Position numbers and translations under genes: made by a program. Of a stretch of 32,000 bases of DNA, positions 137-23,530 are shown piece by piece (the stretch's first letter is position 1; each line of letters begins with the position of its first letter). The notes beneath the pieces are model-generated. The model worked only from the letters and a program-made list of their open reading frames with translations, was not told where the DNA came from and searched no databases. Source of the stretch: Sulfolobus acidocaldarius DSM 639 (lineage in GTDB: Archaea; Thermoproteota; Thermoprotei_A; Sulfolobales; Sulfolobaceae); contig NC_007181.1 of NCBI RefSeq assembly GCF_000012285.1, positions 2,070,001-2,102,000 on the forward strand. The letters run 5' to 3'.

Positions 137-580
137 ATGGTAAAAATAGGGGAAAAGGCACCTATATTTGAAGCTGTTACTGATAGTGGAGAGAGGATTT
201 CATTAGCGGACTTTATTGGAAAATATAATATTGTACTCTACTTCTATCCAAAGGACGATACTCCTGGATGCACAACAGAGGCTTGTGCTTTCAGAGATAA
301 CTGGGACTCGTTAAAAGGATTTGACGCAATGGTTATAGGTGTTAGTTCCGACGATACTAACTCACACAAGAAATTTAAACAAAAGTACAACTTACCGTTT
401 ATCTTGGTAAGTGACCCCGACAAAAAGATAAGAGAAATGTATAACGCAAAGGGCTTTATCCTACCAGCCAGGATAACGTTTGTAATTGATAAAAAAGGAG
501 TAATTAGACATATTTACAATTCACAGATGAATCCAGGTAACCATGTAAACGAAGCTCTAAAAGCACTTAAACAGATTAAG

Positions 581-604
<24 letters not shown>
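137..604 (+). CDS. bcp: Bcp/PrxQ-type thiol peroxidase (peroxiredoxin)
   Basis: 155-aa ORF. It carries [14 protein letters not shown], with the peroxidatic Cys in PGCT and a second Cys five residues later, on a thioredoxin-fold peroxiredoxin pattern. Confidence 0.9.
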
Positions 605-1134
<530 letters not shown>

Positions 1135-1147
<13 letters not shown>

Positions 1148-2973
1148 AACTTATCCCATCCCTCCGGCTTATCTCCTTTTATAGATATTGCCTTAAATGG
1201 ACAGACGGGTACACATGCTCCACAGCCTATACAGTTATAAACGTCTATTTCAGCCTTCTTATCCTTCCTGGGGATAATAGCAGGGCATGTGAAGTAATCA
1301 TAACATATGGTACAACCAGTACACTTAGCCATATCAACTACAGCTTTAGGTAATTTATTATCATCAATCACATCTGTAACTAATAGGGCACAAGCTCTCT
1401 TGGCTATTATCACCGCAGGCTCTTTGTTCTTCTTTACCCACTCGATAGCCTCGGTCAAGCTCTTAACGGAAGAGTTCATCTCAAAAGGATCAAAGTACTT
1501 CACAAACCTTACACCGAGTCCTTTGGCAACTTCTCCTATATCTATCTCCTTTGAAGGACTTGGCTGTTGTCCAGTCATTGCGGTGGATCTGTTATCTAGA
1601 ACTAGGAGAACAAGAGGGGTCTTGTTATATACAGCATTAGCTAAGCCACTCATACCACTGTGGAAGAACGTGGAATCACCTATAATAGCAACAGGTATAT
1701 TTCCGGTAGCTCTATAGACACCATTCGCAATACCTACACTTGAGCCCATATCTGTCGAGGAATCTTGCTCTTCAAATGGGGGTAAAAGTCCCAGAGTGTA
1801 ACATCCAATGTCTCCTGATATGAACGCATTACTCATCGAGGTCATCGACAAAGCTTTCTTGAGATCTACAAATGAGCTTCTGTGAGGACAGCCTGGACAT
1901 AGTGCTGGAGGTCTCTGAGGAATATCTGAAGGTGACTCTAGAAAACTTAAATCTAAATTCAGATCAAAAAACCTGCTGAACGCACTATAAACTTTGTCCA
2001 ATGTCATCTCTCCTACTTTACTTACTATGTCCTTTCCATGAAGCTCTACCCTTATACCATGATCATAGAGCAAGTCCTTAACTTGATATTCCACAATTGG
2101 TTCCACTTCTTCCACAATTAATACCCTTTCAGCCTCGCTTACGGCTTTTAAAATCAATTTACTAGGTATGGGTACAGGGGTTGAAATGCGTAATAAATTG
2201 GCTCTTATGTTCAGTTCGTTCATTGCGTCTTTGACAAAGGAATATGATATACCTGATGCTATAATTAAGTCCTTAGAACCGTTGTCTTCATATTCATTTA
2301 GGTTTTCCACTTCCTCCTTTATCATTTCCCACCTTTTCAACTGCTCCATTCTGTTCCTCCTGGCATTTTCAGGTACAAGGACGTATTTCTTGGGGTTCTT
2401 TGTCACCTTACCGTATATGGGATTTATAGGCGGTTTTATTGAAACGGGGGCTCTCACATGACTTATCCTTGTTGTGGTCCTGAATATTACGGGATGTTTT
2501 ACCTTAGCACTGAGTTTGAAAGCCTCTATCATTAGGTTGTAAGCTGACTGCGGATCATAAGGTTCAATGACTGGAATTAAGCCATGTAAACCATAATAAC
2601 GATTATCCTGTTCGTTTTGAGAAGACCACATCGAGGGATCATCGGCTGATACTATAACAAAGGCACCCTCAACTCCTGTATAGGAGGAACTCATTAATGG
2701 ATCTGCAGCAACGTTTAAACCTACATGCTTCATTGTAGTCAATGCATATGCCCCATTTATGGCTGCACCGTACGCTGTCTCAAAGGCTACTTTTTCATTT
2801 GCACTCCATTCTACATAAACGTTCCTACTATGTTTTTGTATTGTCTCCAGTATTTCTGTGGAGGGTGTGCCTGGGTATCCTGCGGCTACTGACACCCCTG
2901 ATGCCAATGAGGCGAGTGCTATTGCTTCGTTTCCTAGCAAGATTTGCCTGGCTAATGAAGAAGTAATCATCAT
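1135..2973 (-). CDS. iorA: Indolepyruvate:ferredoxin oxidoreductase, alpha subunit (TPP plus two 4Fe-4S)
   Basis: It has the TPP motif GDSTFFHSG and the N-terminal LLGNEAIA. Two C-terminal ferredoxin motifs are present: [14 protein letters not shown] and [12 protein letters not shown]. The ORF track starts at TTG 2988. I prefer the in-frame ATG 2973 because a TATA-like ATATTTATT (minus strand, plus coordinates 2997-3005) lies about 28 bp upstream of it. Confidence 0.88.
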
Positions 2974-3135
2974 TATAAATGTTGACAAAAAATGCTAATA
3001 AATATTCCTATCTAATGTATATACTTTTGATAATTTAGAATAATTAAATCAAATAGAGTCAACTTACCAATGACGATTACTGAAAAATTTTTATCAAAAA
3101 ATATTTTAAAATCATGGAAAAATAAAAAGATATAT

Positions 3136-3570
3136 CTACTCTATAGAAATTCTCAAGGGGTAGTTAAAGTTTGAAACTCTTATCCTCCCACCCTTTTTAG
3201 GAGTCCCTTCAAGATAACAGAACAGACCGCCATTTACACCTTTAAACCTCAGTAACCCTATATGAACAGGCTCAGTCAATTTTTGTCCATCGTCATTTTG
3301 ATAGATTGTGGTGAATGAGTCCAAATACGCATCATCCAACTTGAGTTCAACATATTCCTCTATCTTTGTGAAACAGTCTTCACAGTATATTCTTGGCGGT
3401 AGATAGACTTTCCCACATTTCTTACACTTACTTCCCACTATTTTATTCTCCTTAAGACCTTGGAAGAATCTCTCTCCAGCTGGTCCCACTGTATATTCGT
3501 ATTTCTCAGCTTCCATTATGTCATACCATTTCAGTAAACTTCCTTCCTTACCCTCTTTTTCCCACGACAT
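3136..3570 (-). CDS. DUF35-type Zn-ribbon/OB-fold protein (thiolase-associated)
   Basis: 144 aa. It has the CKKCGKVYLPPRIYCEDC pattern (CxxC-x11-CxxC) followed by a beta-rich C-terminus. AGGTGAT SD lies 4 nt before the ATG. The start abuts the upstream stop (TAAATG). Confidence 0.85.
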   Translation of the reverse strand: MSWEKEGKEGSLLKWYDIMEAEKYEYTVGPAGERFFQGLKENKIVGSKCKKCGKVYLPPRIYCEDCFTKIEEYVELKLDDAYLDSFTTIYQNDDGQKLTEPVHIGLLRFKGVNGGLFCYLEGTPKKGGRIRVSNFNYPLRISIE

Positions 3571-4068
3571 TTAGATCACCTTAAAGCATTGAATATCCTC
3601 TATACTAGCTTTTCTTTCTTCTTTTGGTCTCCATACTGCCTTAACCCTCTTTCCAATAACGCTCATGTTCCTCACCTCTTCGTAGGAAACACATAGCCTG
3701 TGGAATATTCCAGGATAAACGAAGTCTCTGGGATTGGATGGAAGCAATCTTATGACTCCTACCAGTTCTGGTTCGGAAATCTTCTCCCTAGTCCAACTTA
3801 TAAAACTAGCAACTGCCGTCATTACATAGCCCTCGTCCATTACTTCTACCCAGATATCAGTGGGTCTAAAACACTCGTCACAATACATCTTAGGCGGAAC
3901 GTAAATCTTGCCGCATTTAACACATTTCCTTCCCAGAATCTTTCCCTCCTTTAGACCTAAGAGATATCTGCTTTGAGCCTGACCTGCAGTATAGGCATAC
4001 TTTGCGTTAGGTTTATATGGAATTAATACGTGCTTATGTAATTCCTCCTCTTTTAGAGAAGTAACCAC
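3571..4068 (-). CDS. DUF35-type Zn-ribbon/OB-fold protein (thiolase-associated), paralog
   Basis: 165 aa with CVKCGKIYVPPKMYCDEC. The start is GTG, preceded by GAGGTGA with a 6-nt spacer. Confidence 0.85.
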   Translation of the reverse strand: MVTSLKEEELHKHVLIPYKPNAKYAYTAGQAQSRYLLGLKEGKILGRKCVKCGKIYVPPKMYCDECFRPTDIWVEVMDEGYVMTAVASFISWTREKISEPELVGVIRLLPSNPRDFVYPGIFHRLCVSYEEVRNMSVIGKRVKAVWRPKEERKASIEDIQCFKVI

Positions 4069-4079
4069 TTCTTCTCACC

Positions 4080-5258
4080 TCAATTACGCATAATAATAAC
4101 TGTGGATGCTTGCATAAGATCGCCCCATGCTTGGGCTAAACCAGTGTGAACTGGTTTCTTTACCTGCATCTTGCCTGCAGTGCCCTTTAGTTGCCAATAT
4201 ATACTGATAACTTTCATAAGACCTGCAGCTGCTATGGGATTGCCAACTCCCAGGAGACCTCCACTTGGGCTACTAGGAATATCTCCATCAATATCAAAGA
4301 CTCCCTCTTTCAGGAGTTTAGGTGCTTCTCCTCTCTTTGCAATTCTTAACCCCTCAATGTGATGTAACTCTTTATAATCGAACGGGTCATATGGCTCTAT
4401 TACGTCAAGTTCTTTGTACGGGTTCTCTATTCCCGCCATTTTATAAGCCATCCTTGCGGCAAACTCTAAATACCTAGGATATGCAAGGTCTCTAGCGGGC
4501 CATTCTGTATTATCCAGTGTCCAACCCACTCCATCAACCCAAATTGGTGTATCAGAGTATCTTCTAGCCACATCTTCAGACGCCATAACCATTGCTGCTC
4601 CTCCATCACTTACAGGACTTATATCCAAAAGCTGAACTGGCCATACCAAAACTTCGCTATTCAGAACATCATCTACTGTTATGTTTCCTCCCAACTGGGC
4701 ATAAGGATTATTTGCTGCGTTCCTCTTGTTCTTTACAGACACTAACGCTATTTCCTCCTTCTTTATTCCATAAGTAGCCATATACCTATGCATCTCCATA
4801 GCGAATATCCATATTAAGTTTGGGTTCAATGGTTTTTCTAAAATAGGATCCCATATATATCTAAATACTGATTGTGGGTGAGGTCTTGCAGGACTCATCT
4901 TCTCTTCAGCAACGACAAGCACAGTATTACACATACCACTTGCAACATGATACCAACCAGTTATAGCAGCCATAACACCAGTAGCTCCGCCCACAAATAC
5001 TCTGCTCGAGGGCTTTCTAATGCCACCTGAACCATGGGATAGGTACTCTCCCTTTAGATTAACTCCATCGAAGGCATCAGGAGCACTTCCTATCACCACG
5101 CACTCTATGTCCTTTAACTCTAATCCTGCCTCTTCCAATGCCTTACTAGATGCTTCCCATGCTATCTCCTGAGGTGTCTCAAGTATTCTTCTCCTGAACT
5201 GTGTCATCCCAGCACCAATCACTGCTACCCTCTTATTCAAATGTATGTTTACCTTCAT
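4080..5258 (-). CDS. Thiolase-fold protein (SCP-x/nsLTP-like), apparently lacking the catalytic Cys and His
   Basis: 392 aa with an N-terminal VAVIGAGMTQF and thiolase-like overall layout. It reads VFVGGATG where thiolases have xACASG, and GGLLGVGNPIAAAG where they have GGxxSxGHPxGATG. An ATGA overlap joins it to the upstream gene, and a GGTGG SD precedes the start. Confidence 0.8.
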   Translation of the reverse strand: MKVNIHLNKRVAVIGAGMTQFRRRILETPQEIAWEASSKALEEAGLELKDIECVVIGSAPDAFDGVNLKGEYLSHGSGGIRKPSSRVFVGGATGVMAAITGWYHVASGMCNTVLVVAEEKMSPARPHPQSVFRYIWDPILEKPLNPNLIWIFAMEMHRYMATYGIKKEEIALVSVKNKRNAANNPYAQLGGNITVDDVLNSEVLVWPVQLLDISPVSDGGAAMVMASEDVARRYSDTPIWVDGVGWTLDNTEWPARDLAYPRYLEFAARMAYKMAGIENPYKELDVIEPYDPFDYKELHHIEGLRIAKRGEAPKLLKEGVFDIDGDIPSSPSGGLLGVGNPIAAAGLMKVISIYWQLKGTAGKMQVKKPVHTGLAQAWGDLMQASTVIIMRN

Positions 5259-6403
5259 GGTCTTTCCACCACCACAACAGAACCTGTAAAAGTAGGGATC
5301 CCTCTCCAGGATCCAACAAGAGCTCTATCTCCTTTTCCACTATTTATGTAGTCTATTGCGTCTAGTAGAAGAGAGAACCCTGCAGCTTCCAACGGAACCC
5401 CTTTAGACAGATGACCGCCTAGAGGATTAACCGGTATTTCGCCTTGTGGATGTAAATTACCCTCTCTCAGATCTTTAACTGGTTCTTCTGAGATCCCTAA
5501 TGCCTCAAGATGTTGTAACTCTTTATAACTGTATCTATCGTCAACAAATACCGCATTGAAGTATTTTCTCGGCGAGTCAATCTTACCCATTCTATATGCC
5601 ATATTTGCCGCTAGTTTCATGTATGTAGCTTTACCCATATCTGAGGTCTCGGCATTGACTGAATCTGTTGCATATCCAACTCCCCTTATTATTAGATAGT
5701 CATCCCCCTTAACTCTCTTTGCAACCTCCTCAGAGGCTATCACAATTGTAATTGCTCCATCCACGAATGAGGCAATATCTAGTCTAGTTAAGGGGTACAC
5801 CACATACTCATTATGTCTAAGAATCTCATCTACTGATAAGTTACTGGCATAAGATGATCTCACAGACTTAAGCCCAGCCTTTTTGTTCTTTTCTACAACT
5901 AAAGCTAAGTCCTCCCTTGTTACTCCTTTCCTTTCCATAAATTTCACTGCATCTATTCCTGCGAGAAAGTGAAAGTTAGGAGGGTTTAATGTCCTTAAGT
6001 AAATCGGATCCATGGCAAATTTCACTAGGTCGGGGAATGTTAGAATATCACTTACCTTGGAATGACCTTCAATGGCAACGACATCTGCTACACCGGCGTT
6101 AATATGCATTATACCATGAGCTAAACCCTGGATTGTATCGCCTGCAACGGTCATAGTTGGTCTCATTGCCCCTCCTATTTGATCTGGAGCAAACTCGTCG
6201 CTTATAGATATTCCCTCCCAAAAATCCTCTTGGCATGATATAAAAGAATCAACATCTGTTCTTGGATTAATATCTCCTGCGTCCTTATATGCCCTCGACG
6301 CTGCCTCAAATACCATTTCTCTGAAGGACACTTCTGGTGTAGTTGGTCTAAAACCATACCAACCCACGCCAATAATGGCTGTTCTATTCAGAAAAACCAC
6401 CAA
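5255..6403 (-). CDS. Thiolase-fold protein, second paralog, also apparently lacking the catalytic Cys and His
   Basis: 382 aa with TAIIGVGWYGF at the N-terminus. It reads TVAGDTIQG at the expected nucleophile position and GGHLSKGVPLEAAG at the expected His position. The start is TTG 6403 (GTG 6400 is an alternative). There is no SD and the upstream region is AT-rich, so it is probably the first gene of the operon. Confidence 0.75.
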   Translation of the reverse strand: MVVFLNRTAIIGVGWYGFRPTTPEVSFREMVFEAASRAYKDAGDINPRTDVDSFISCQEDFWEGISISDEFAPDQIGGAMRPTMTVAGDTIQGLAHGIMHINAGVADVVAIEGHSKVSDILTFPDLVKFAMDPIYLRTLNPPNFHFLAGIDAVKFMERKGVTREDLALVVEKNKKAGLKSVRSSYASNLSVDEILRHNEYVVYPLTRLDIASFVDGAITIVIASEEVAKRVKGDDYLIIRGVGYATDSVNAETSDMGKATYMKLAANMAYRMGKIDSPRKYFNAVFVDDRYSYKELQHLEALGISEEPVKDLREGNLHPQGEIPVNPLGGHLSKGVPLEAAGFSLLLDAIDYINSGKGDRALVGSWRGIPTFTGSVVVVERP

Positions 6404-6440
6404 TTAAAATTAAATAATTATTATTATTAAAAATTTTTGT

Positions 6441-7565
6441 CTAGATATCATCCAGCGTAGGAATTCCGTATTTTTCAACATATTTGGAAATAATATGCCT
6501 TTGAACCTCGTCTGTGCCTTCGCCAATTCTCATTAACCTCACGTCCCTGTAGATTCTCTCAATCTTTGTACCTTTCGCATACCCCATCCCTCCAAATATC
6601 TGTAAAGATAGATCCACAACTTGGTTTGCTACCTCTCCAGAAAGTAACTTAAGCATCGAAGCGTAAACTCCCTTGGTATTAGAGTTTTCCTCAAACTTCT
6701 TACTGACCTCTTTCATAAAAGACTTGACTGAGGTAAGTTTTGTAATTGAATCAGCAATATACCACTTTATTCCCTGAAAAGAATATAACTTACTACCAAA
6801 AGCCTCCCTATTTAGTGCCCAGCTTAAGGCTTCTTGTAGTGCAGATTCTGCTAAACCGATTGATATACCACTTATTGCCAATCTTCCAACCTCTAACACA
6901 GTATTTACCATATCCCAGCCCCTATTAATCTCCCCAACAACTTGAGACTCGTCAGCCTTGCACTCTCTAAATACGACCTCAGATGTCCCAGTGCCTCTGT
7001 TACCCATAACTTCAATCTTCCTGCTCTCTATACAATTACTCCTAGGTAATAGGAATACAGATAACTCGCCTCTCCTTGACCCAGTCCTAGCTACAGTTAT
7101 GAACAGATCAGCGTAAATTCCCTGAGTTATCCACATTTTACGTCCTGATATTACCCACTCTCCATTTCTCCTCTCAGCATATGTTTTCATGGAGCCAACA
7201 TCACTACCACCTGTGGGTTCGGTCAACGCAAAACTACCTATCATTTTCCCTCTGCTTATAGGATCAAGAAACTGTTTCTTCTGACTCTCATTAGCAAATA
7301 GTCTGAGCATTTCGCCTACTAACTCTCCCTGAGCATCAGCAATTAGAGCCACGGAACCGCTAACTTTAGCCATTTCCTCTAACGAGATGACCATATCATA
7401 ATAGGATAAGTTGTTCTGTAAAGGGACAAGATAGCCAAGCTCCCCTAGCTTTTCCACAATATCCCTCGGATAATAATCCTCTCTATCTACCTTCTCTGCG
7501 ATTTTCTCTACTTCTCGTCTGAGGAATTCTCTTAAAGAATTAACCAAAATAGTTGTTTCGCTCAT
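6441..7565 (-). CDS. Acyl-CoA dehydrogenase (FAD)
   Basis: 374 aa. Motifs seen are ALTEPTGGSDV, WITQG and the C-terminal RIGEGTDEVQR (catalytic-base Glu context). The palindromic TATA-like TATTTTAAAATA (7588-7599) lies about 28 bp upstream of the ATG. Confidence 0.9.
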   Translation of the reverse strand: MSETTILVNSLREFLRREVEKIAEKVDREDYYPRDIVEKLGELGYLVPLQNNLSYYDMVISLEEMAKVSGSVALIADAQGELVGEMLRLFANESQKKQFLDPISRGKMIGSFALTEPTGGSDVGSMKTYAERRNGEWVISGRKMWITQGIYADLFITVARTGSRRGELSVFLLPRSNCIESRKIEVMGNRGTGTSEVVFRECKADESQVVGEINRGWDMVNTVLEVGRLAISGISIGLAESALQEALSWALNREAFGSKLYSFQGIKWYIADSITKLTSVKSFMKEVSKKFEENSNTKGVYASMLKLLSGEVANQVVDLSLQIFGGMGYAKGTKIERIYRDVRLMRIGEGTDEVQRHIISKYVEKYGIPTLDDI

Positions 7566-7649: not shown

Positions 7650-9509
7650 ATGAATTGGAGAATATATTCTTTAGAACAAATTAAATCCATGAGCAAGTAT
7701 GCCATGGATGATCCCACGAGCTTTTGGAGGGATAAAACTGAGTATATCACTTGGTTCAAAAAGCCTGAAAGTATTGTAGAGGGGCAAGCACCATATGACA
7801 AGTGGTTTGTGAGAGGAACCACAAATATCAGTTATAACGCCGTAGATAGGCATATTCCCAGTAGGAAAGATAAAGTGGCATTTTACTGGGCTAATGAGAG
7901 ATTTGAGACTAAGACTGTGTCATATCTAGATTTGTACAATGAGGTGAATAAGGCAACATATGTACTGCAAGAGCTGGGAGTGAGAAAAGGAGATAGTGTA
8001 TCACTTCTATTTCCTAGTATTCCGGAGGCAGTATTTTTTAGTCTTGCCGTACACAGATTGGGTGCAGTACTTGTAATTCATTATGTAGGATTAAGCCATG
8101 AGACATTAGCTTATAGGTTAAATGACTGCGGATCAAAGGTGATGGTTGTTGCCTCGAAGGGGATTAGAAACGGTAACGAGATAAGAATCAAGGACTTTGT
8201 GGACAAATTACTTGACTCCCATACCACACCAGTAAAGAGTGTGCTTGTAGTGTCAAGAGGTTACTCGGATTTTGAAGTTAAACAAAACAGGGATATTGTA
8301 TATGAGGATGTAAAACCAAAGGGAAAGGTGTACGTTAGACCAGAGGAAGTGGAATCAAACGAGCCCGGTACTATTTACTATACTTCTGGTACCACTGGTA
8401 AGCCTAAAGGGTTATTCCACTCTCACGCCGGTTATACCATAGGCTTAAACTGGGCTTTTAGGGCACTTTTAAATCCTCAGGATAATGAGGTGTGGTGGAC
8501 AGTATCTGAATTAGGGTGGCCTGTTTGGCCCATGGCTAACCTATACACAATTCCAGTAATGGGAATTACAGGAGTCCTATTTGAGGGATTCATAGGATAT
8601 AAAAGGGATTTGTTCTCTAGGGTCATAGAACGATTTAACGTAAATTACGTATGGAGCTCGACCACTACACTTTACACTCTTAAGAGTTTAGGTGAAGAAT
8701 CTGTAAAGTCAGGAGACACTTCGAGCTTAAAGATCATTCTTAACACAGGGGAACCGCTAAATGTAGGGGCATGGAACTGGTTAACTGAAAACATGCCTCA
8801 TGTGAAGATCGGTGACGCTTATTGGATGACAGAACACCTTATACCCATAGCCTGCACACCATATGGATTAGGAGAGATTCCTTACAAACCTGGGTCTGCT
8901 GGTATAGTATTCCCAGGTACATATTTCACGGTAGTAGACGATGATGGAAAGCCTTTGCCACCAAAGCAGAAGGGATACATAGTGGTCAAACCTTTAAATC
9001 CTGCCACAGCTAAGATGTGGAATGACCCCACTTACGAGAAAATAAAAGATAAATATTGGTCTAGATTCCCAGGTTACTTCTATACAGGGGATTACGGATA
9101 TGTAGATGAAGACGGATATCTTTTTGTACTGGGAAGAGCTGACGACGTGATAAGAAGTGAGGGAGAAAGAATAGGAACCCTTGAGGTGGAAAGTATAATT
9201 GGGACCTATCCTCAAGTTGCAGAGACTGCAGTTGTGGGAACAACAAATTCTATTGTGGCTTTTGTTGTTCCTAAGCAGGGAGTTAACCCAGATGATGTTT
9301 TAAGAAATGAAATCAAGAACTATTGTAGAAACTCTGGATATATTGTAGATAAGGTGATATTTCTTAAGAGGTTACCAAAGACTAAGAGCGGAAAGATTAT
9401 GAGAAGATTATTAAAGTCAATTTTAGCTAACGAGGATCCGGGTGATGTTTCAACTCTAGATGACATCAAGATTATTGAAGAGTTAAAACAGTCCCTTAGC
9501 CAGACATAA
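7650..9509 (+). CDS. AMP-forming acyl-CoA synthetase (acetyl/propionyl-CoA synthetase-like)
   Basis: 619 aa. It has the AMP-binding motif YTSGTTGKPKG and an N-terminal DPTSFW...YNAVDRH layout typical of ACS-type enzymes. YTGDYGYVDEDGY and the C-terminal LPKTKSGKIMRR are also present. Confidence 0.9.
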   Translation: MNWRIYSLEQIKSMSKYAMDDPTSFWRDKTEYITWFKKPESIVEGQAPYDKWFVRGTTNISYNAVDRHIPSRKDKVAFYWANERFETKTVSYLDLYNEVNKATYVLQELGVRKGDSVSLLFPSIPEAVFFSLAVHRLGAVLVIHYVGLSHETLAYRLNDCGSKVMVVASKGIRNGNEIRIKDFVDKLLDSHTTPVKSVLVVSRGYSDFEVKQNRDIVYEDVKPKGKVYVRPEEVESNEPGTIYYTSGTTGKPKGLFHSHAGYTIGLNWAFRALLNPQDNEVWWTVSELGWPVWPMANLYTIPVMGITGVLFEGFIGYKRDLFSRVIERFNVNYVWSSTTTLYTLKSLGEESVKSGDTSSLKIILNTGEPLNVGAWNWLTENMPHVKIGDAYWMTEHLIPIACTPYGLGEIPYKPGSAGIVFPGTYFTVVDDDGKPLPPKQKGYIVVKPLNPATAKMWNDPTYEKIKDKYWSRFPGYFYTGDYGYVDEDGYLFVLGRADDVIRSEGERIGTLEVESIIGTYPQVAETAVVGTTNSIVAFVVPKQGVNPDDVLRNEIKNYCRNSGYIVDKVIFLKRLPKTKSGKIMRRLLKSILANEDPGDVSTLDDIKIIEELKQSLSQT

Positions 9510-9605: not shown

Positions 9606-10427
9606 TTAATTCTTTTCTTTCTTAACTGAATACCTTACCTTACCTCTTTCCCTGATTTCTTCCACATATCCTAGCCTCACGAGTTTCCTTATCCTCCTAT
9701 ATATGGTGGATTTAGGTAAGCCAGTAAGTCTCATTATTTCTGTTAAGTTATTCCCTCCCATCTTTATGGCTTCTAAAATCATTGTATCTCTCTCATCTAG
9801 TGTTTCATTGGATAAATTTACCTCTTCATCCTCAGCTCCCTGCGTGACGATCTCGACATTTCTCCTCCTGAATAGCCTAACCAAGAAATACAATAGAACA
9901 GCGTCTATTATCACAAGAGCTATGATTATGGGGAATACTAAATTGTTTTGTTGTGAAACTGTAACTTGGGGAGAGGGTGAAGATGCATAAAGTAAAGTAA
10001 TTTGAGACACATTCTTGAATGTCAAATTATATAGATTGTTAACCACTGTAAAGCTACTGGGTTGAGGAGAAATGTAATTTAACGTGGCATTTATGGGAAG
10101 GAGAACAATAACGTTAAAACTGTTATTTTCTACCACGTTAATAACTCCTTTAGGAAGAACTGTATTGTAGACTACGTATATACTCCCTGTAATATTGTGA
10201 AAGTACATGTAACCATTTACTATTGTGTAACTTGCACCTGTCACCCTAATGTCATTATAACTAGAACCTATCAGCTTGAACTGGTTTACATTATTTAATG
10301 TCGCCACAACAGTTCCGTTATAATATATTATGATTTGATTGTTCAACTGTGAAGATGAACTAGACACCACGCATGTAAGGAGTATTAGTAGAGTTAGCAG
10401 AACCCCAAGTTGTAATGAAAACCGCAT
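9606..10427 (-). CDS. Membrane-tethered transcriptional regulator: signal peptide, sequon-rich extracellular domain, one TM, cytoplasmic winged-HTH
   Basis: 273 aa. The N-terminus is MRFSLQLGVLLTLLILLTCVVSSSSS. A beta-rich region carries NGT/NIT/NNS/NAT/NLT/NVS sequons. The TM segment FPIIIALVIIDAVLLYFLV is followed by RLFRRRN (positive-inside). The C-terminus is LTEIMRLTGLPKSTIYRRIRKLVRLGYVEE, a wHTH of ArsR/TrmB style. Confidence 0.75.
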   Translation of the reverse strand: MRFSLQLGVLLTLLILLTCVVSSSSSQLNNQIIIYYNGTVVATLNNVNQFKLIGSSYNDIRVTGASYTIVNGYMYFHNITGSIYVVYNTVLPKGVINVVENNSFNVIVLLPINATLNYISPQPSSFTVVNNLYNLTFKNVSQITLLYASSPSPQVTVSQQNNLVFPIIIALVIIDAVLLYFLVRLFRRRNVEIVTQGAEDEEVNLSNETLDERDTMILEAIKMGGNNLTEIMRLTGLPKSTIYRRIRKLVRLGYVEEIRERGKVRYSVKKEKN

Positions 10428-10619: not shown

Positions 10620-11117
10620 TTAGTCTTCAGATTCGTTTTCTTGTTGAGCAGGATGGACTATTATGAGAGGCTCTCTCTTAACATTCAAGTCTCCGTGAGG
10701 ATGCTCACTAACGGTATAGCTTAATGTGACTACCACATTGTATTTTCCAGTAGTGAGGTTTAACGCCTGATGGTCATTATCTAATGACAGAGTCACTACT
10801 TTTCCACTTATGTTCAGTGTAACATTGAAAGAGGAGAACACATTATCTAGTTTTTCCTCATGTAACAATTGAAATACATATGTTCCATTAGCATTCACTA
10901 TTAATGTAGTATTCAGCTTGATCTCTCCGCTCTGTCCGGGTTTTATGTTACCAAGGCTAAAGAATATTGGTGTTAACTGTATTGAAGAGTTGGAGTTGCT
11001 AACGCCTACTACATGGTAGGATATATATGCTAGTGGTCCGTATCCTGATACTCCTGCTACTAATACTCCGGTTGTTAGACCTATTACGGCTAATGCTACC
11101 AATAGTATTGGTTTCAT
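10620..11117 (-). CDS. Secreted or membrane-anchored sequon-rich beta protein, unknown function
   Basis: It has an N-terminal hydrophobic anchor (MKPILLVALAVIGLTTGVLVAGV), at least 6 N-x-S/T sequons and an acidic tail. The ORF track starts at TTG 11120. The adjacent ATG 11117 is preferred. It is a paralog of 11380..11988. Confidence 0.6.
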   Translation of the reverse strand: MKPILLVALAVIGLTTGVLVAGVSGYGPLAYISYHVVGVSNSNSSIQLTPIFFSLGNIKPGQSGEIKLNTTLIVNANGTYVFQLLHEEKLDNVFSSFNVTLNISGKVVTLSLDNDHQALNLTTGKYNVVVTLSYTVSEHPHGDLNVKREPLIIVHPAQQENESED

Positions 11118-11162
11118 CAATTATGTTATTGTCGTTTAGTCCTTATTAATACTCCCTTGTTT

Positions 11163-11379: not shown

Positions 11380-11988
11380 GTGGAAAAACAAACACTATTG
11401 ATAATACTACTGATAGTCACAATATTGGTAAATGCATTCTTAGGTATTCAAGTGTACTATCTGATTCATCAATCATCTCATCCTAATGCCCAAACTCCTC
11501 TCAACGTGTCAGATCTCCAGATAGTTAGCCAATCATCAAGTAGTCAGAACACCACGTCGTCTAACAATATGCAGACCAGCAGTATGTCCACAACTGTCAA
11601 CAATAACTCTGGACAAACATATAATTACTCACTTACAGTTAAATTCACTTTACACATTAGAGATCCAGGTGTCTACTTGGTAGTGATAAATCCCAAGATA
11701 TATTTCTATCACCTTTACGTTATATTGTATCTGGAGGACGGTAAAGTAGTATCTCTGAATCTCGATCATACTGCCCAGAATATAACAATAGACAGTAAAG
11801 ACGTAAAAGTGACACTGTATATTTATGCTGAAACTAATCAGCAATTATCTCCTAAGAAGCTCATAGAAGAGATAGGTCTTTCATTTAGCTTTGTATCACC
11901 CTCAGAAGACACTGAAAATGATTTCATCTTAGTTCTTCCTAAAATTTCATTTGATAGTCAATCCTATGACGGAGTAATTTTCTTCTGA
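11380..11988 (+). CDS. Secreted or membrane-anchored protein with Ser/Thr-rich stalk, paralog of 10620..11117
   Basis: 202 aa with a GTG start. It has an N-terminal anchor (LLIILLIVTILVNAFLGIQVYYLI) and an S/T/N-rich linker. TLHIRDPGVYLVV...DGKVVSLNLDHTAQNITI aligns with TLIVNANGTYVFQ...SGKVVTLSLDNDHQALNL of the divergent neighbour. Confidence 0.6.
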   Translation: MEKQTLLIILLIVTILVNAFLGIQVYYLIHQSSHPNAQTPLNVSDLQIVSQSSSSQNTTSSNNMQTSSMSTTVNNNSGQTYNYSLTVKFTLHIRDPGVYLVVINPKIYFYHLYVILYLEDGKVVSLNLDHTAQNITIDSKDVKVTLYIYAETNQQLSPKKLIEEIGLSFSFVSPSEDTENDFILVLPKISFDSQSYDGVIFF

Positions 11989-13520: not shown

Positions 13521-14297
13521 GTGAACGGAGTAGGATATTTCATATCCCATGGCTCTCCAATGATTCTTGTGGAGGAAAACCCTTGGAAAGGACACTTGGC
13601 TGACTTAGGGAAGGAAATAAAGAACAAGTACGATCCAGAGACAGTGATTATTTCAAGCCCTCACTTCTTCTCTTGGGGTGAAGGCAATTACACCGTTATT
13701 TCTAAAGACCTAAAATGTATACAAGATTACTTTGGTTTTCCAAAGGAACTTTACGAGTTCTGTTACCAGGCTGAAAATGATGTTGAACTTGCAAGTGAAC
13801 TAATAAAGGAAAGTAATGGTATGCTCAAAGTTGAGGAGAAGTGGGGACTGGATCATGGTGCATGGATCCCCCTTTATTATATGTTTCCAGAGGATAAGCC
13901 AAAAGTTGTCCCAATTTCAATCTCTTCTGCTAGTCCCAGAAGACACTATGAATTAGGTTCTATCATCAGAAAGGTCTCAGAAAAACTGGGCAGGAGGACT
14001 TTATTCATAGCCACTGGTTCACCTACACATAGGCTGGACTTACTTTACTTTAACCTTAAACCACGTGCAACGAAGTTTGACGTTTTACTTATAAAGCTCA
14101 TAAATGAGGGAAAGTTCGAGGATATACTTGACATGGATAGTAAGTATCCTAAGGAGTATTCCTCAGCGACCCCTGAAGGAGATCTGAAGACACTTCATAC
14201 TCTCCTGGGGTTTGTGAGACCTACAAAGGCTAAAGTCCTAGGATATGATATACCTTGGGCTGGCGTCAGTATGCTTAGCGCATTATTTGAAGAGTAA
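13521..14297 (+). CDS. Class III extradiol dioxygenase, LigB/YgiD (4,5-DOPA-dioxygenase-like) family
   Basis: 258 aa with a GTG start. Motifs seen are ISHGSPM, GLDHGAWIPL and GSPTHRL. Confidence 0.85.
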   Translation: MNGVGYFISHGSPMILVEENPWKGHLADLGKEIKNKYDPETVIISSPHFFSWGEGNYTVISKDLKCIQDYFGFPKELYEFCYQAENDVELASELIKESNGMLKVEEKWGLDHGAWIPLYYMFPEDKPKVVPISISSASPRRHYELGSIIRKVSEKLGRRTLFIATGSPTHRLDLLYFNLKPRATKFDVLLIKLINEGKFEDILDMDSKYPKEYSSATPEGDLKTLHTLLGFVRPTKAKVLGYDIPWAGVSMLSALFEE

Positions 14298-14348
14298 AAC
14301 AATAAAAAATAAGAGAGAAGATGGGTCACTTAGTAATCATATCAATGC

Positions 14349-14669
14349 TTAAACTACTTCCCTGAAAGTCTCTACTCCTGCGTCTTCATTAAAGCGGACA
14401 TAGAACTTATACTCCCTACCACCTCTCTTGGAGACACATGTCCTGCCACTACTGTAGTTTCCATTTATCACTAACTCGTCAATCCTATCCCAACCTGTTC
14501 TCTTCTTAACCTCCCTTAGCATATTTACGAACTCGAGAGCGCATATATCACAACAGAAGAAGAGTTTTTCCCCATCTATCTCCTCATAGTAGTCTCCCCA
14601 AGTTCCTCCACAAAGTGCACAACCAGTTTCTTTAGTTCCTGCTGTCCTACCATTTACAGTTATTTTCAT
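14349..14669 (-). CDS. Small Cys-rich putative metal-binding protein
   Basis: 106 aa with CALC...CCDIC (two CxxC knuckles 19 residues apart). An ATGA overlap couples it to the upstream gene. It possibly resembles the Thermoplasma Ta0938-type Zn protein, but this is unverified. Confidence 0.6.
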
Positions 14670-15580
14670 AAGTTATACACCTTCTTTACTAACTCAGGTT
14701 CTATTTCAAAACCTCTCTCTAATCTTGCTAATAAATATTTCGAAAAGGCATCAAAGGACCTTAGTACAATAATTTGAGCTTGCTCTTTTAATCCCAATTC
14801 CTCAGCATACTTCTCTCCAAGTTTTAATGCTTCAGAGGCATGGGATACATCAGCCTCATATCCTTCCCTCAAGAAATCTTTTACCTCTTGAGGGTACCTA
14901 TCTGAGGAAAGTATCTCAGGATTGAAGTAATGGACTTTGGCACCGTATTGCCTTAAACTTCTGTCAGCTACTAATTCTAAGCTATGCATAGCGAGCATAG
15001 TTTCTAACCATGTTCTTGTCTCAGCCACTCTTCTCCAGAAATTTATTGCGTTTCTGGTACTTGGTAAGGGAGTCATAGAGAGAATTTTCTCCCGTGGCAT
15101 CCCTAAAGACTCTCCCATCCTAAGGAGTAGCTCATAATGTGATGGTCTTACCCCATAGCCTATGAACTCCACCTTAATATTTTCAAGTTCATATTCCATT
15201 ACATCGTCCTTATCAGTCTTAAATACTATAGCAGATAGTACCTTCACCCAGTTTTTAAGAAAGTGTTGATGCTCTATAACGTAACCTAGCAGAACACCTC
15301 TTGTAGGATTTTGCATGGCTGAAATGAAAGGATGAGGGTTTTCTCCGTAAAACCTCTCTATAAATCTCTTTCTTATCCATGATGATAGCTCTGCGGGTTG
15401 ACTGAAGAAATTCTCAAGAGAAACCTTTAGCTCTTCCCTGTTCATTCTTTCATAACTTAAATTTCGATTGAGCCACATAACATGGGACGGGTCACTCTTA
15501 GAGTTTGCCATTAATTCAATATGACCAGCTAAATCTCCCCACGTCTCAAATTTCATCTCACATGAGGGACATAAAGGCAT
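14666..15580 (-). CDS. Heme-oxygenase-like (PqqC/TenA/CADD-type) putative diiron redox enzyme with N-terminal C2H2-like zinc finger
   Basis: 304 aa. The N-terminus is CPSC-x12-H. It is followed by [40 protein letters not shown] and EADVSHASE, which resemble the E / ExxH helix pattern of iron-containing redox enzyme family proteins. Confidence 0.65.
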
Positions 15581-15820
15581 ACATAAACTATTAACATGGT
15601 AAAATAAAAATTAAGTATTAAAATAAACATTTATAAATTGAAAGTAGAAGTCAATTTTTTCTTATAGAGATAAACTATATGACCAATTTTCATTTCTAAT
15701 CAGACTGTATTTTCAGTAGTTTATAAATAGAGTGTGTAGTGACTTCTAATTATTGTTTTAAACGATTATATCATTTTTCTATAGCTAAAAATATAAACAA
15801 CTCACATAAATTAATAGAGT

Positions 15821-16660
15821 ATGGGCTATATAGATGCACATACTCATGCGTGGTTCAGGGAATTCTTACCTCAAAATTTTTCCTCAAAAAATGCAGGTTA
15901 TGAGTTTAAGCCTCCTTCTCTTCAACAAGTCCTAAAGGAAATGGACTCAGCGAACATTGACTACATAGTTATCATAGCTTATCCAGCAAGAGAACTGTGG
16001 AATATTGATGAAAGTATTGCTATCCAGGCTATAGACTTTCTTAAACCCTATGGCGAAAGGTTCTCAGTTGTAGGTGGTATAGAACCTAACAAGCTTACTG
16101 TTGAAGAGACCAAATATTGGCTGGGAAAACAATACGAAAAAGGAGTAGCTGGCTTTAAACTGCATCCCGTACATAGCTGGGTAAAACCTAACGCTTATAG
16201 AGAAGAAGAGGGAGGACTTAAACAGTTGGAAATAATGTATCAGTTTGCAGAGGATCATAACTTACCTGTAATAATTCACACAGGTACCAGTATGTTCTTA
16301 AGGGCAAGAAATAAGTACGGCGATCCCATATATATCGATGATGTTTCTGTAGACTTTCCCAGGCTGAAGATAGTAATGGCTCATATGGGAAGACCTAACT
16401 GGGTTCCCACTGCTTTTCAGTTATGCCGAATTAGAAGAAACATATACGCGGAAATCTCATCTATACCACCAAAGAAGATTTTGGATTATTTGCCAAGAAT
16501 TGAAGAAATTTCAAATAAAACAATTTACGGAAGTGATTATGGTGGACCAGGTACAAAGGGACTTGCAGAAAATTTGAAAGAGTTCTTGTCATTAAACATT
16601 GAAGGAAAGGAAGACATAGCTGATAAAAACCCAAGATCTCTCTACAAGACTCTGAAATAG
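15821..16660 (+). CDS. Amidohydrolase_2 (metal-dependent TIM-barrel hydrolase/decarboxylase) family protein
   Basis: 279 aa. Metal-ligand pattern motifs seen are IDAHTHAW, KLHPVH, IHTGT, AHMGRP and YGSDY. TATA-like AAATATAAA lies about 28 bp upstream. Confidence 0.85.
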   Translation: MGYIDAHTHAWFREFLPQNFSSKNAGYEFKPPSLQQVLKEMDSANIDYIVIIAYPARELWNIDESIAIQAIDFLKPYGERFSVVGGIEPNKLTVEETKYWLGKQYEKGVAGFKLHPVHSWVKPNAYREEEGGLKQLEIMYQFAEDHNLPVIIHTGTSMFLRARNKYGDPIYIDDVSVDFPRLKIVMAHMGRPNWVPTAFQLCRIRRNIYAEISSIPPKKILDYLPRIEEISNKTIYGSDYGGPGTKGLAENLKEFLSLNIEGKEDIADKNPRSLYKTLK

Positions 16661-16759
16661 TTTCGCTATGCAGACCTCTTCTTTATAGTATATTATTCTA
16701 AATTTTGTAAAAAATATAAAATTAAAGATTTAAAAAGACTTAGGTTCTAATTATTCTTT

Positions 16760-17572
16760 ATGGACAGGATTAAGGTTATTGACGCCCATGTCCATTATCA
16801 TATTTATAAAGGCTTAATCCCTGATGAATGTAAAGGATTTCTAAGGTACACAAAAGATACTAAGATGACACTGAGTAACGATTGGGTGGAACTAGATAAA
16901 ATACTCCTGGTACCATCCCACCCCTGTTATACCAGAGAGTGCTACGACGGTTTTTACATAGATTATGAGGAGAGAAAGAGAAATCCTGACTTATATTTAC
17001 AGTGGGGCGAGGTAAACCCCTTAACCTGTAATGTTAAGGAGGAATTAGAGAAGCAATACTCACTAGGAATTATAGGAATAAAACTACATCCACCTCATCA
17101 CGGTTTTAAACCTAACGGTTACAGGGAAGAAGAGGGAGGGCTAAAGTCCTTATTGTACATCTACGAGTTTGCCCAAGATCACGACTTACCTGTCATGATA
17201 CACACAGGAACGAGCATAGAGGGTGCCACGAGAAATAAGTATTCTGACCCAATATTAATCGACGATGTAGTGAAGGACTTTCCAAAACTTAAAGTAATCA
17301 TAGCCCATGCAGGGAGACCCATATGGTACACTACCGCCTTTTATATGGCTAAATACTTTGACAACGTGTATTTAGAGATATCCTCTATTCCTCCGAGAAA
17401 TATACTGAAGTACTTACCTAATTTGCTCACCATACCTGAGAAAGTAATATATGGTAGCGACTTTCCTGCATATGTGGGGCAAGATTTAGCAGAGTATGCC
17501 CATCAGATTTATGAAGTGGTAAAGGACAGGAGGATATTGAGGGATAATATTTTACGGCTTATCAAGTTTTGA
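16760..17572 (+). CDS. Amidohydrolase_2 family protein, tandem paralog
   Basis: 270 aa with IDAHVHYH, KLHPPH, IHTGT, AHAGRP and YGSDF. Long blocks are identical to the upstream gene, for example YREEEGGLK, HTGTS and EISSIPP. Confidence 0.85.
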   Translation: MDRIKVIDAHVHYHIYKGLIPDECKGFLRYTKDTKMTLSNDWVELDKILLVPSHPCYTRECYDGFYIDYEERKRNPDLYLQWGEVNPLTCNVKEELEKQYSLGIIGIKLHPPHHGFKPNGYREEEGGLKSLLYIYEFAQDHDLPVMIHTGTSIEGATRNKYSDPILIDDVVKDFPKLKVIIAHAGRPIWYTTAFYMAKYFDNVYLEISSIPPRNILKYLPNLLTIPEKVIYGSDFPAYVGQDLAEYAHQIYEVVKDRRILRDNILRLIKF

Positions 17573-22904: not shown

Positions 22905-22953
22905 ACATTTTTCATAATAGACTTTTTAAACATCGAATACTATATATTTCTCA

Positions 22954-22959
22954 AGGTGG
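22954..22959 (+). promoter_or_regulatory. Shine-Dalgarno-like AGGTGG before the porG TTG start
   Basis: It lies 7 nt upstream of TTG 22967. The same GGTG-type motif precedes the other internal operon genes in this window. Confidence 0.35.
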
Positions 22960-22966
22960 TCAATTA

Positions 22967-23530
22967 TTGCTCGAAATAAGATTCCACGGTAGAGGTGGTC
23001 AAGGTGTCGTTACGGCTTCTCACCTACTGGCTGAAGCAGCAGGTTATGATAACTTATACTCTTCATCATTCCCCATATACGGGGCTGAGAGAAGAGGAGC
23101 CGAAATAGAGGCATATTGTAGAATTTCTGATAGTCAAATCAGGGTTACGTCTCCAATACAGGAACCTGATTACGTTGTAGTTCTAGATGGTTCCCTCCTA
23201 CATCTTTCAAACAATGTTTATAGAGGTCTAAAGTCTAACTCCGTAATTCTTGCTAACTACGGTTCTGAAATTAAGACAGATAAGAAAATAATTACTGTAA
23301 ACGCTACAAAGGTAGCCTCGGAACTAGGCTTAATTAGATCAGGTTGGCCTATGGTAAATGTAATAATGTTAGGTTCTTTGATCAAACTTACTGGAATGCC
23401 AAGTATTGAGTCACTTGAAAAGGCAATTAGAGATGAATTTGATGATAAGCTAGCAGAGATCAACATGAAAGGAGTAAGAAAGATGTATGAACTAGTAGAG
23501 GGGAGGAGGTACAATGTCCTTACTACTTGA
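22967..23530 (+). CDS. porG: 2-oxoacid:ferredoxin oxidoreductase, gamma subunit (substrate not assignable)
   Basis: 187 aa with a TTG start and the FHGRGGQGVVTAS motif. Confidence 0.85.
   Translation: MLEIRFHGRGGQGVVTASHLLAEAAGYDNLYSSSFPIYGAERRGAEIEAYCRISDSQIRVTSPIQEPDYVVVLDGSLLHLSNNVYRGLKSNSVILANYGSEIKTDKKIITVNATKVASELGLIRSGWPMVNVIMLGSLIKLTGMPSIESLEKAIRDEFDDKLAEINMKGVRKMYELVEGRRYNVLTT

Follow-up and report, generated by a model that had tools for sequence, protein, structure and literature searches.

A widely conserved archaeal module of two cysteine-less thiolase-fold proteins and two DUF35 proteins, probably an acyl-CoA carbon-carbon lyase

The locus and its products

Four adjacent genes of Sulfolobus acidocaldarius DSM 639 encode two thiolase-fold proteins, here called A and B, and two DUF35 proteins, here called D165 and D144. 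They occupy minus-strand positions 6403..3136 of the 32,000-nucleotide (nt) stretch of NC_007181.1 that was analysed as a whole, and which we refer to as the window. Open reading frames (ORFs) were called and the sequence was read directly. Neither A nor B keeps the catalytic residues of thiolases. By analogy with characterised enzymes, the four genes probably encode a 1:1:1:1 heteromeric, Cys-independent acyl-coenzyme A (acyl-CoA) carbon-carbon (C-C) lyase, a (retro-)aldolase acting on short-chain substrates. The module comprises the following features.

5255..6403, minus strand: subunit B, thiolase-fold, 382 amino acids (aa), TTG start; identified as an ORF and by NCBIfam PRK06066; predicted non-catalytic partner
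4080..5258, minus strand: subunit A, thiolase-fold, 392 aa; identified as an ORF and by NCBIfam PRK06065; predicted catalytic subunit with Gly91, Tyr290 and Asn340
3571..4068, minus strand: D165, DUF35 protein (Zn ribbon and OB fold), 165 aa, GTG start; identified by Pfam zf-ChsH2; first predicted clamp subunit
3136..3570, minus strand: D144, DUF35 protein, 144 aa, orthologue of SSO2064 (PDB 3IRB); identified by phmmer and Pfam; second predicted clamp subunit
4986..4988, minus strand: Gly91 codon of A (GGA), at the position of the thiolase nucleophilic Cys, from alignments
4389..4391, minus strand: Tyr290 codon of A (TAT), in YDPF, at the position of the HDCF His, from alignments; equivalent to Ltp2 Tyr294 and Sal Tyr302 (catalytic base)
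4239..4241, minus strand: Asn340 codon of A (AAT), in GNP, at the position of the GHP His, from alignments; equivalent to Ltp2 Tyr344 and Sal Gln352
6404..6440, minus strand: AT-rich 37-nt spacer, found by eye, in which a TATA-like box precedes the B start by about 25-33 nt (acaaaaatttttaataataataattatttaattttaa)
3100..3135, minus strand: T-rich stretch right after the D144 stop, found by eye (atatatctttttatttttcc...)

A preliminary description of this DNA, made by reading the letters, had seen one tight operon here, and the sequence bears this out. The genes of B and A share a stop/start overlap (ATGA at 5258-5255), a GAGGTGA motif at 4081-4075 is separated by six bases from the GTG of D165 at 4068, and the D165/D144 junction at 3571/3570 reads AAGGTGATC-TAA-ATG. 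The peptide motifs quoted in that description were likewise all found as written. The spacer upstream of B probably provides the operon with its own promoter and a leaderless transcript, and the T-rich stretch past D144 is probably an archaeal terminator that ends it. Together, the TATA-like element 5' of B and the T-run 3' of D144 suggest that the four genes are transcribed as a unit of their own.

Pfam assigns A and B to the thiolase fold, and D165 and D144 to DUF35 with a ChsH2-type Zn ribbon and an OB fold. The NCBIfam score of A is 826 bits for PRK06065 (cut-off 455) and that of B 662 bits for PRK06066 (cut-off 516), and both models are titled merely 'thiolase domain-containing protein'. 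The nearest homologue of B, at 95% identity, belongs to Sulfolobus acidocaldarius. D144 matches 3irb_A across 143 residues (phmmer, E 5.6e-66), and its zf-ChsH2 and OB_ChsH2_C domains both pass the Pfam cut-offs. D165 is more distant, although homologous to PDB 3IRB (E 2.6e-16); its zf-ChsH2 domain passes (38.5 bits), whereas its OB domain stays at 17.9 bits, below the cut-off of 27.1. The structure of SSO2064 (PDB 3IRB) dates from 2010, when it was given neither a partner nor a function (PMC2954200).

Structural models gave the same picture. Single-chain AlphaFold2 modelling yielded a predicted local distance difference test score (pLDDT) of 77 and a predicted template-modelling score (pTM) of 0.84 for A, and a pLDDT of 90.8 for B. 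The models have the five-layer thiolase fold, with Foldseek TM-scores of 0.8-0.88 to 7yvy, 6esq and 6hsp. The top matches of A were Pyrococcus furiosus 7YVY, Methanothermococcus thermolithotrophicus 6ESQ and Sulfurisphaera tokodaii ST0096 (4YZO), and those of B were SCP2 or archaeal thiolases. The bacterial aldolases Sal and Ltp2 ranked below SCP2-type and archaeal thiolases. As a separate observation, PDB 4YZO, a solved 'thiolase-like protein', has Ser for the nucleophilic Cys and keeps both catalytic His; it is a further non-canonical archaeal thiolase paralogue.

Catalytic sites, distribution and assembly

Catalytic residues were mapped through phmmer alignments to solved thiolases and through a MAFFT alignment of eight PDB references with about 80 family members, and the two methods agree. 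In A, Gly91 stands at the Cys site, Tyr290 (in YDPF) at the site of the HDCF His, and Asn340 at the site of the GHP His. In B, the Cys site falls on Ala87 or Thr90, depending on the register, the HDCF His site on Asp288 and the GHP His site on Val336. No Cys was found within about 15 residues of the nucleophile site of B in either register of the alignments. The preliminary description had read Gly for Cys and Asn for His in the 392-aa protein, and a missing Cys and Val for His in the 382-aa protein. Both readings were confirmed by phmmer and MAFFT, and these alignments show no catalytic Cys or His in either protein. Two points go beyond that description. The third catalytic residue, the His of HDCF, is also replaced in both proteins, and the proteins are not equivalent, since A has a conserved alternative triad and B is degenerate.

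This asymmetry extends to the families. In 39 members of the A family the G/Y/N replacements are invariant, apart from a single Ser at residue 340. The B family varies across 39-40 homologues, with A/T/S/P at the Cys site, D/E at the HDCF His site and V/R/I/W/N/T/L at the GHP His site. No Cys is invariant in the A family, and the near-invariant C53 and C110 sit outside the catalytic loops, as does the single Cys of B. Asp380 of A, in the loop that forms the second oxyanion hole, is invariant, and so is the entire loop 124-152 (PHPQSVFRYIWDPILEKPLNPNLIWIF), which has low confidence in the single-chain AlphaFold2 model. Its position after strand 112-119 suggests that this loop corresponds to the beta4-alpha4 loop, a disordered segment in Sal, Ltp2 and BbsB that forms the roof of their active sites (PMC12329534). 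The invariant loops encircle the pocket of A.

Because neither protein has the Cys/His/His set, thiolysis or Claisen condensation through an acyl-Cys intermediate is excluded for both. The earlier view that these proteins are not ordinary beta-ketothiolases therefore holds, as all three catalytic residues are gone in A and B and this state is conserved family-wide. Chance is not the explanation, because the substitutions are invariant in the A family, consistently non-catalytic in the B family, and accompanied by a four-gene order that recurs in 56 loci. B itself looks like a non-catalytic partner, judging from its residues.

The module is widespread in archaea. In a scan of one genome per species, A is encoded in more than 593 genomes at 64-83% identity, and overall its identity across phyla is 64-89%. 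The genomes listed with A include Sulfolobales, Thermoproteales, Desulfurococcales, Acidilobaceae, Bathyarchaeia, thermophilic Nitrososphaeria, Geo- and Geothermarchaeota, a Korarchaeote, and Hod- and Promethearchaeota, as well as one bin labelled Deltaproteobacteria. The order B-A-DUF35(165-type)-DUF35(144-type) is the rule in the 80 loci that were fetched. Among them, 56 complete modules, one per species and from many phyla, have gaps of at most 20 nt, with median intergenic gaps of 0.5-3.5 nt. Across these modules, the median identity to the window counterparts reaches 68% in A, compared with 45% in B, 46% in D165 and 39% in D144, and neighbouring acyl-CoA dehydrogenases (ACADs) are about 40-46% identical to one another. 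Compared with these partners and neighbours, A is under unusually strong constraint.

Both DUF35 proteins of the window keep the Zn ribbon, as noted before, yet its spacing is CxxC-x10-CxxC in both and not the CxxC-x11-CxxC first reported. The 165-type retains this motif in 56 of 56 modules. Two of the four Zn cysteines are lost in 15 of 57 aligned 144-type sequences (CGD--K ... CPD--; L006, L007, L009, L012, L015-L018 and others).

A natural fusion informs the stoichiometry. P0242 (731 aa) joins A to two DUF35 proteins in one chain (A-D1-D2), its cluster has 27 members from several contigs, and in a bacterial locus a B-like gene lies immediately upstream of the fusion. With A, D1 and D2 in one chain and a single B gene beside it, we infer that a 1:1:1:1 assembly fits best, that is, an A:B heterodimer with one DUF35 protein per protomer. 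The fusion also lends indirect support to DUF35 binding to a thiolase-fold protomer. The 2+2 complex put forward in the preliminary description thus gains from comparative genomics, through the conserved order, the tight spacing in 56 loci and the A-DUF35-DUF35 fusion with B adjacent, and comparative genomics is the kind of evidence on which it stands. Two other apparent fusions were rejected. P0116 (679 aa) joins B(1-339) to A(55-392) with the junction parts of both missing, and is probably a deletion chimera. The B-like/A-like P0483 (686 aa) has an Arg-rich out-of-frame linker on a single contig and was attributed to a frameshift.

Relatives and genomic context

Proven thiolase-fold retro-aldolases have Gly at the nucleophile position, and their catalytic base is the Tyr of a Y-D-x-F/Y motif (Y294DHF in TcLtp2, Y302DCY in CtSal), and exchange of this Tyr for Phe abolishes aldolase activity in both enzymes (PMC12329534). 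As general acid, Ltp2 uses Tyr344 and Sal uses Cys304, and both complexes are arranged as alpha-beta-beta-alpha (PMC12329534). For the comparison, the 6OK1 and 9MYR sequences were obtained by PDB search, with a mycobacterial Ltp2 sequence as bait only. At the Cys, YDxF and GHP-His sites, the MAFFT alignment gives Gly91, Y290-D-P-F and Asn340 for A, Gly, Y-D-H-F and Tyr344 for Ltp2 (6OK1), and Gly89, Y-D-C-Y and Gln352 for Sal (9MYR).

Ltp2-ChsH2, the steroid side-chain retro-aldolase of Thermomonospora curvata and Mycobacterium tuberculosis (PDB 6OK1), shares with A the SCP2-type thiolase fold, the Gly at the Cys site and the base Tyr of YDxF. It is likewise clamped by a DUF35 domain, and its bacterial cluster places Ltp2 after an ACAD and a MaoC hydratase, as is the case for bacterial A-like genes. 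However, its His296 (oxyanion hole) and Tyr344 (general acid) correspond to Pro292 and Asn340 in A, it is a homodimer, unlike the proposed A:B pair, and the archaeal module has neither a steroid context nor a fused hydratase. Against PRK07855, which we took as the Ltp2-type family because an Ltp2-signature protein scores 401 bits there, A scores 117 bits and B 59 bits, far below the cut-off of 469. The bile-acid aldolase Sal-Shy of Comamonas testosteroni (PDB 9MYR) resembles A in Gly89, in Tyr302 of YDCY, in its DUF35 clamp and in the amide of Gln352 at the GHP-His position, comparable to Asn340. It differs in that its essential Cys304 is Pro292 in A, so that the Tyr-Cys dyad is missing, and in that Sal is homodimeric with its DUF35 fused to a MaoC hydratase. 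A third relative, TbSLP of Trypanosoma brucei (PDB 5AB4-7), has the thiolase fold and a YDCF motif, binds acyl-CoAs and was suggested to be an aldolase (PMC12329534), but it keeps Cys at position 3 of YDCF and has neither a DUF35 partner nor a paralogous partner subunit. If A is an aldolase, its residues would make it a third variant beside Ltp2 and Sal.

Heteromeric systems offer a second line of comparison. In actinobacteria, Ltp3-Ltp4 is described, on genetic evidence, as a heteromeric aldol-lyase for C24-branched sterol side chains, with two adjacent, differing thiolase-like genes that are both required (PMC6678751, as summarised there from Wilbrink 2012); A and B are also adjacent and co-conserved. 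A scores 170 and 93 bits against PRK08256 and PRK07937, and B 80 and 74 bits, where the cut-offs are 436 and 419, so that neither belongs to these families; the two models presumably represent Ltp3 and Ltp4. Neither A nor B reaches the cut-off of any of the four NCBIfam 'lipid-transfer protein' models. Bacterial A-like proteins match PRK08313, and the best match of bacterial B-like proteins is the 353-aa 'lipid-transfer protein' model PRK07937, which, from gene lengths, we suspect to be the Ltp4 family. None of the proteins retrieved in a homologue search with the Rhodococcus A-like protein was named Ltp3, and archaea are not known to degrade sterols. The link of A and B to Ltp3 and Ltp4 is a lead.

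Active archaeal thiolases are the nearest relatives of A by sequence and fold. They also lie in an operon with DUF35, which they need for soluble, active complexes, but they keep the Cys, the HDxF His and the GHP His, and pair one thiolase gene with one DUF35 gene instead of two with two. A paper on archaeal ketothiolase/DUF35 systems counted seven such pairs in one genome; Cys-less ones are not mentioned. The ketosynthase/chain-length-factor heterodimer of type II polyketide synthases combines, like the proposed A:B pair, a catalytic subunit with a paralogue that lacks the catalytic Cys. Its catalytic partner, however, keeps Cys-His-His and performs Claisen condensation on acyl-carrier-protein substrates, whereas here neither subunit has the Cys.

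To place A more broadly, it was searched against 1.84 billion cluster representatives, and four positions were typed in 111 full-length matches. The signature G-Y-[P/A]-N occurred in 33 of these, with G-Q-P-N in a few. In a rough neighbour-joining tree, whose deep branches are unreliable, proteins with these two signatures form one clade with family A. The neighbouring clade holds family B and other degenerate-signature proteins, and other parts of the tree contain the canonical C-H-[A/C]-H thiolases, Ltp2, Sal and 4U4E. The sole active-site changes specific to the A-like clade are C to G, H to Y (91%) and H to N (100%). On the phylogenetic placement proposed in the preliminary description, A stands closer to archaeal thiolases than to Ltp2.

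The neighbourhood of the module was surveyed in 82 loci, together with a Pfam census of 149 immediate neighbours. In the window, the flanking genes on the B side are the following.

6441..7565, minus strand: ACAD, 374 aa, directly upstream of B on the same strand; identified by Pfam
7650..9509, plus strand: AMP-forming acyl-CoA synthetase, acetate/propionate-type, 619 aa, divergent; identified by Pfam and NCBIfam

ACAD is the most frequent module neighbour overall (22 of 82 loci). An ACS-type ligase occurs in 13 of 82 loci and is the commonest family among the immediate neighbours, and a branched-chain amino-acid ABC ATPase is present in 11-12. Acyl-CoA mutase was found as well, its large subunit in 10-11 loci, MeaB in 10 and the B12-binding subunit in nine. 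The census of immediate neighbours agrees with this view. A split acyl-CoA mutase (about 560 aa and about 135 aa), accompanied by MeaB, flanks or encloses the module, about 1-5 kb away, in L057, L061-L065, L068, L072, L073 and L081. In L081 the module lies inside the mutase operon itself (ACAD-CobA-mutase-B12 subunit-[B-A-D-D]-MeaB). All ten mutases carry Phe at the Tyr89 and Gln at the Arg207 of methylmalonyl-CoA mutase, and all ten lack the Asp of 2-hydroxyisobutyryl-CoA mutase. Given Phe and Gln at the specificity positions, they are not methylmalonyl-CoA mutases, though they would be annotated so; presumably Phe/Gln is the pattern of isobutyryl-CoA mutase.

Some individual loci are more telling. 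In a Hodarchaeota locus, genes for SCP2, an iron-containing alcohol dehydrogenase (Fe-ADH), an aldehyde:ferredoxin oxidoreductase (AOR) and flavodoxin come after the module. Plasmid pLP1 of Rhodococcus qingshengii carries thiolase-ACAD-ACAD-MaoC-MaoC-[B-like][A-like: G, YAPF, N][DUF35]-CaiB-SDR-FadD, and ACAD, hydratase and aldolase in succession are the classic layout of aldolytic side-chain cleavage. A plasmid of Simplicispira suum combines [B-like][A-like][DUF35] with an Ltp2-signature protein and its own DUF35, SDRs, a thiolase and Fe-ADH. The Ltp2-signature protein there (L086, 8698-10328), annotated as 'hypothetical protein', has the exact signature (Gly, YDHF, SEAYIHG) and adjoins the A-like/B-like/DUF35 set. 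As a further observation, a divergent thiolase-like gene (best BLAST match A), together with a DUF35 gene, immediately precedes the Cys-less module on its upstream side in most of the Bathyarchaeia loci L052, L054, L055, L057, L061-L063, L067, L069, L072, L073 and L083.

These contexts place the module in acyl-CoA catabolism. The ACAD, the acetate/propionate-type CoA ligase and the mutase of isobutyryl-CoA-mutase type all point to short-chain (C4-C5) substrates, which we favour for archaea. Two more specific ideas were set aside. A route from 3-hydroxyisovaleryl-CoA to acetone was considered, yet hydantoinase/acetone-carboxylase genes (Pyrobaculum, Vulcanisaeta) occur in just 2 of 82 loci. The idea of a methylmalonyl-CoA decarboxylase, raised by the mutase neighbourhood, was weakened by the residues of the ten mutases given above.

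Elsewhere in the window, genes for 2-oxoacid enzymes are abundant. Downstream of the module, two genes that overlap by 13 nt encode an indolepyruvate-type 2-oxoacid:ferredoxin oxidoreductase (581-2988, minus strand; 617 aa with a TTG start and 188 aa). The 3' end of the small-subunit gene overlaps by 24 nt a convergent 155-aa ORF (137-604, plus strand), which by the look of its sequence may encode a peroxiredoxin/Bcp-like protein. A second oxidoreductase set (POR gamma, POR_N/PFOR_II, TPP_C) follows a 396-aa 4Fe-4S protein at 21714-25829 (plus strand), and a thiamine-pyrophosphate (TPP) enzyme is encoded at 26727-28319 (minus strand). In the 273-aa protein of 9606-10427 (minus strand), two hydrophobic segments, the first of them N-terminal, flank an Asn-rich (NxS/T) middle, and the C-terminal part is a winged-helix DNA-binding domain (IclR/TrmB/MarR-like); this protein may be a membrane-anchored one-component regulator. 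ORFs 10620-11120 (minus strand) and 11380-11988 (plus strand) encode NxS/T-rich secreted or membrane proteins without Pfam matches. A mixed cluster at 13521-21259 comprises a LigB-type extradiol dioxygenase, a TENA/THI-4 protein fused to a C2H2 Zn finger, two Amidohydro_2 proteins and a molybdenum hydroxylase pair (775 aa and 459 aa); in Pyrobaculum oguniense, a similar molybdenum hydroxylase pair lies about 5 kb from the module.

Proposed reaction, rival readings and implications

We propose that the four proteins would form a pseudo-symmetric D-A:B-D heterotetramer, resembling the DUF35-clamped dimers of Ltp2, Sal, BbsAB and archaeal thiolases. Each DUF35 protein would clamp one protomer. 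B, a degenerate paralogue, would supply the second half of an obligate thiolase-fold dimer, and A would be the sole catalytic subunit. With Cys-His-His replaced by Gly91-Tyr290-Asn340 in A, no acyl-enzyme can form. Instead, A would bind acyl-CoA, with Asn340 and the backbone amides of Gly91 and Gly379 polarising the thioester, and Tyr290 would act as general base on the beta-hydroxyl group. The predicted outcome is a reversible retro-aldol reaction, which converts a 3-hydroxyacyl-CoA into acetyl- or propionyl-CoA and an aldehyde or ketone.

Aldol-type chemistry in A is the best-supported mechanism, yet we hold it tentatively, at a little short of an even chance, on the basis of analogy and context. 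The preliminary description had already raised an aldol or retro-aldol reaction. The Gly and the YDxF Tyr shared with Ltp2 and Sal, and the bacterial gene contexts, speak for this idea by analogy, and the missing acid residues of Ltp2 and Sal speak against it.

Several observations weigh against an aldolase of the proposed kind. A has Pro292 for the His or Cys of YD(H/C)F and Asn340 for Tyr344, so that its mechanism cannot copy that of Ltp2 or Sal. The rough tree places A-like proteins apart from Ltp2 and Sal, and the Gly/Tyr match may be convergent or coincidental. Among the 149 immediate archaeal neighbours, the Pfam census found no recurrent enoyl-CoA hydratase, and the aldehyde enzymes AOR, Fe-ADH and zinc-containing alcohol dehydrogenase each appear in just 2-5 of 82 loci, which is suggestive and not systematic. 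The 64-89% identity of A is unusual for a catabolic lyase and may reflect a different, more central role. In the AlphaFold2 model of A, the invariant loops 62-79, 124-146 and 206-215 have low confidence, and the active-site geometry cannot be read from it. Finally, the preference for an A:B heterodimer over separate A2 and B2 dimers comes from stoichiometric logic and from the fusion.

Rival readings were weighed against the same evidence. Both proteins could be pseudo-enzymes that serve, with the DUF35 proteins, as a scaffold, as a carrier or sensor that binds acyl-CoA, or as a regulator of other enzymes. The loss of all canonical catalytic residues in A and B would suit such an assembly, and the very high conservation of A would suit many interaction surfaces. 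DUF35 proteins are scaffolds, one of them, Trf (Sso2509), has a reported non-metabolic role (PMC6996347), and the neighbourhood of the module differs between lineages. Nevertheless, we consider a non-catalytic assembly unlikely, because the former catalytic positions of A are fixed as G/Y/N over a broad clade while the same positions drift in B, which is the pattern expected of a working active site, and because invariant loops surround the pocket of A.

A decarboxylase was judged to be quite improbable. Here the Tyr and Asn of A would serve as oxyanion hole for a malonyl-type or beta-keto-acid CoA ester, with B and the DUF35 proteins in a structural role, much as in the Cys-less chain-length factor of type II polyketide synthases or in the weak malonyl-CoA decarboxylase activity of TbSLP. 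Decarboxylating condensing enzymes of the KAS III/CHS type use Asn at the GHP-His position, as A does, and the module lies within a mutase operon in L081 and beside mutases in nine Bathyarchaeia loci. TbSLP (YDCF) slowly decarboxylates malonyl-CoA, but Sal, which has a similar site, does not (PMC12329534). Moreover, the mutases, with Phe and Gln for Tyr89 and Arg207, are unlikely to take a carboxylated substrate, and the ACAD-hydratase-[pair] context of Rhodococcus better suits an aldolase.

Very unlikely, in our view, is a CoA-independent acyl transferase of the PhlABC/MucABC type (a Friedel-Crafts acylase), or other non-aldol C-C or C-X chemistry on a non-CoA substrate. Those complexes also join two differing thiolase-fold subunits with DUF35 (PMC12960953; PMC2954200), and PhlC and MucB are among the Foldseek matches. 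However, PhlC and MucB, the ACAT-like subunits, keep the catalytic Cys and the GHx His, and their partner is HMG-CoA-synthase-like (PMC12960953), whereas A and B are both SCP2-type and lack the Cys; the neighbours of the archaeal module are acyl-CoA enzymes. An ordinary beta-ketothiolase or acetyl-CoA C-acetyltransferase with an unconventional nucleophile is barely credible: the fold, the DUF35 partners that go with active archaeal thiolases, the majority of source annotations ('acetyl-CoA C-acetyltransferase') and, if orthologous to A and B, the adjacent Msed_0270/0271 of Metallosphaera sedula, untested ketothiolase candidates (PMC7078158), favour it, but no Cys lies at or near the nucleophile site of A or B, both His are gone, C53 and C110 of A sit outside the catalytic loops, and the NCBIfam titles read just 'thiolase domain-containing protein'.

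DUF35-clamped, Cys-less thiolase-fold lyases are of a kind already known. What would be new is the predicted obligate enzyme/pseudo-enzyme pair, with two dedicated DUF35 proteins, a Gly-Tyr-Asn site and a very wide, strongly conserved archaeal distribution. A full-text literature search found no characterisation of the archaeal 2+2 module. As a bolder and rather doubtful extension, the module may be a CoA-dependent, cofactor-free aldolase that is central to the metabolism of short-chain acyl-CoAs in Thermoproteota, Bathyarchaeia and some Asgard archaea, with a site that evolved independently of the bacterial steroid aldolases. If the aldolase reading is true, the heteromeric enzyme/pseudo-enzyme design would be a third independent solution beside the Ltp2 and Sal sites, and an aldolase that is heat-stable, cofactor-free and CoA-dependent would be of use in forming C-C bonds. 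The founding DUF35 structure, SSO2064 (PDB 3IRB), partnerless since 2010, would also gain a function.

The proteins of this module carry the source label 'acetyl-CoA C-acetyltransferase' in hundreds of archaeal genomes and metagenome bins, and the literature lists thiolase-like genes as ketothiolase/DUF35 pairs or as candidate beta-ketothiolases (for the latter see PMC7078158). If they do not perform thiolysis, reconstructions that count thiolases would be partly wrong, for example in Bathyarchaeia and Asgard archaea, with respect to beta-oxidation, 4-hydroxybutyrate cycles and the proposed archaeal fatty-acid synthesis. An aldolase in their place would provide archaea with an 'aldolytic' bypass of the last two steps of beta-oxidation, from 3-hydroxyacyl-CoA to acetyl-CoA and an aldehyde, without dehydrogenase or thiolase. 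In the reverse direction, it would allow a thermodynamically easier C-C bond formation from acetyl-CoA and aldehydes.

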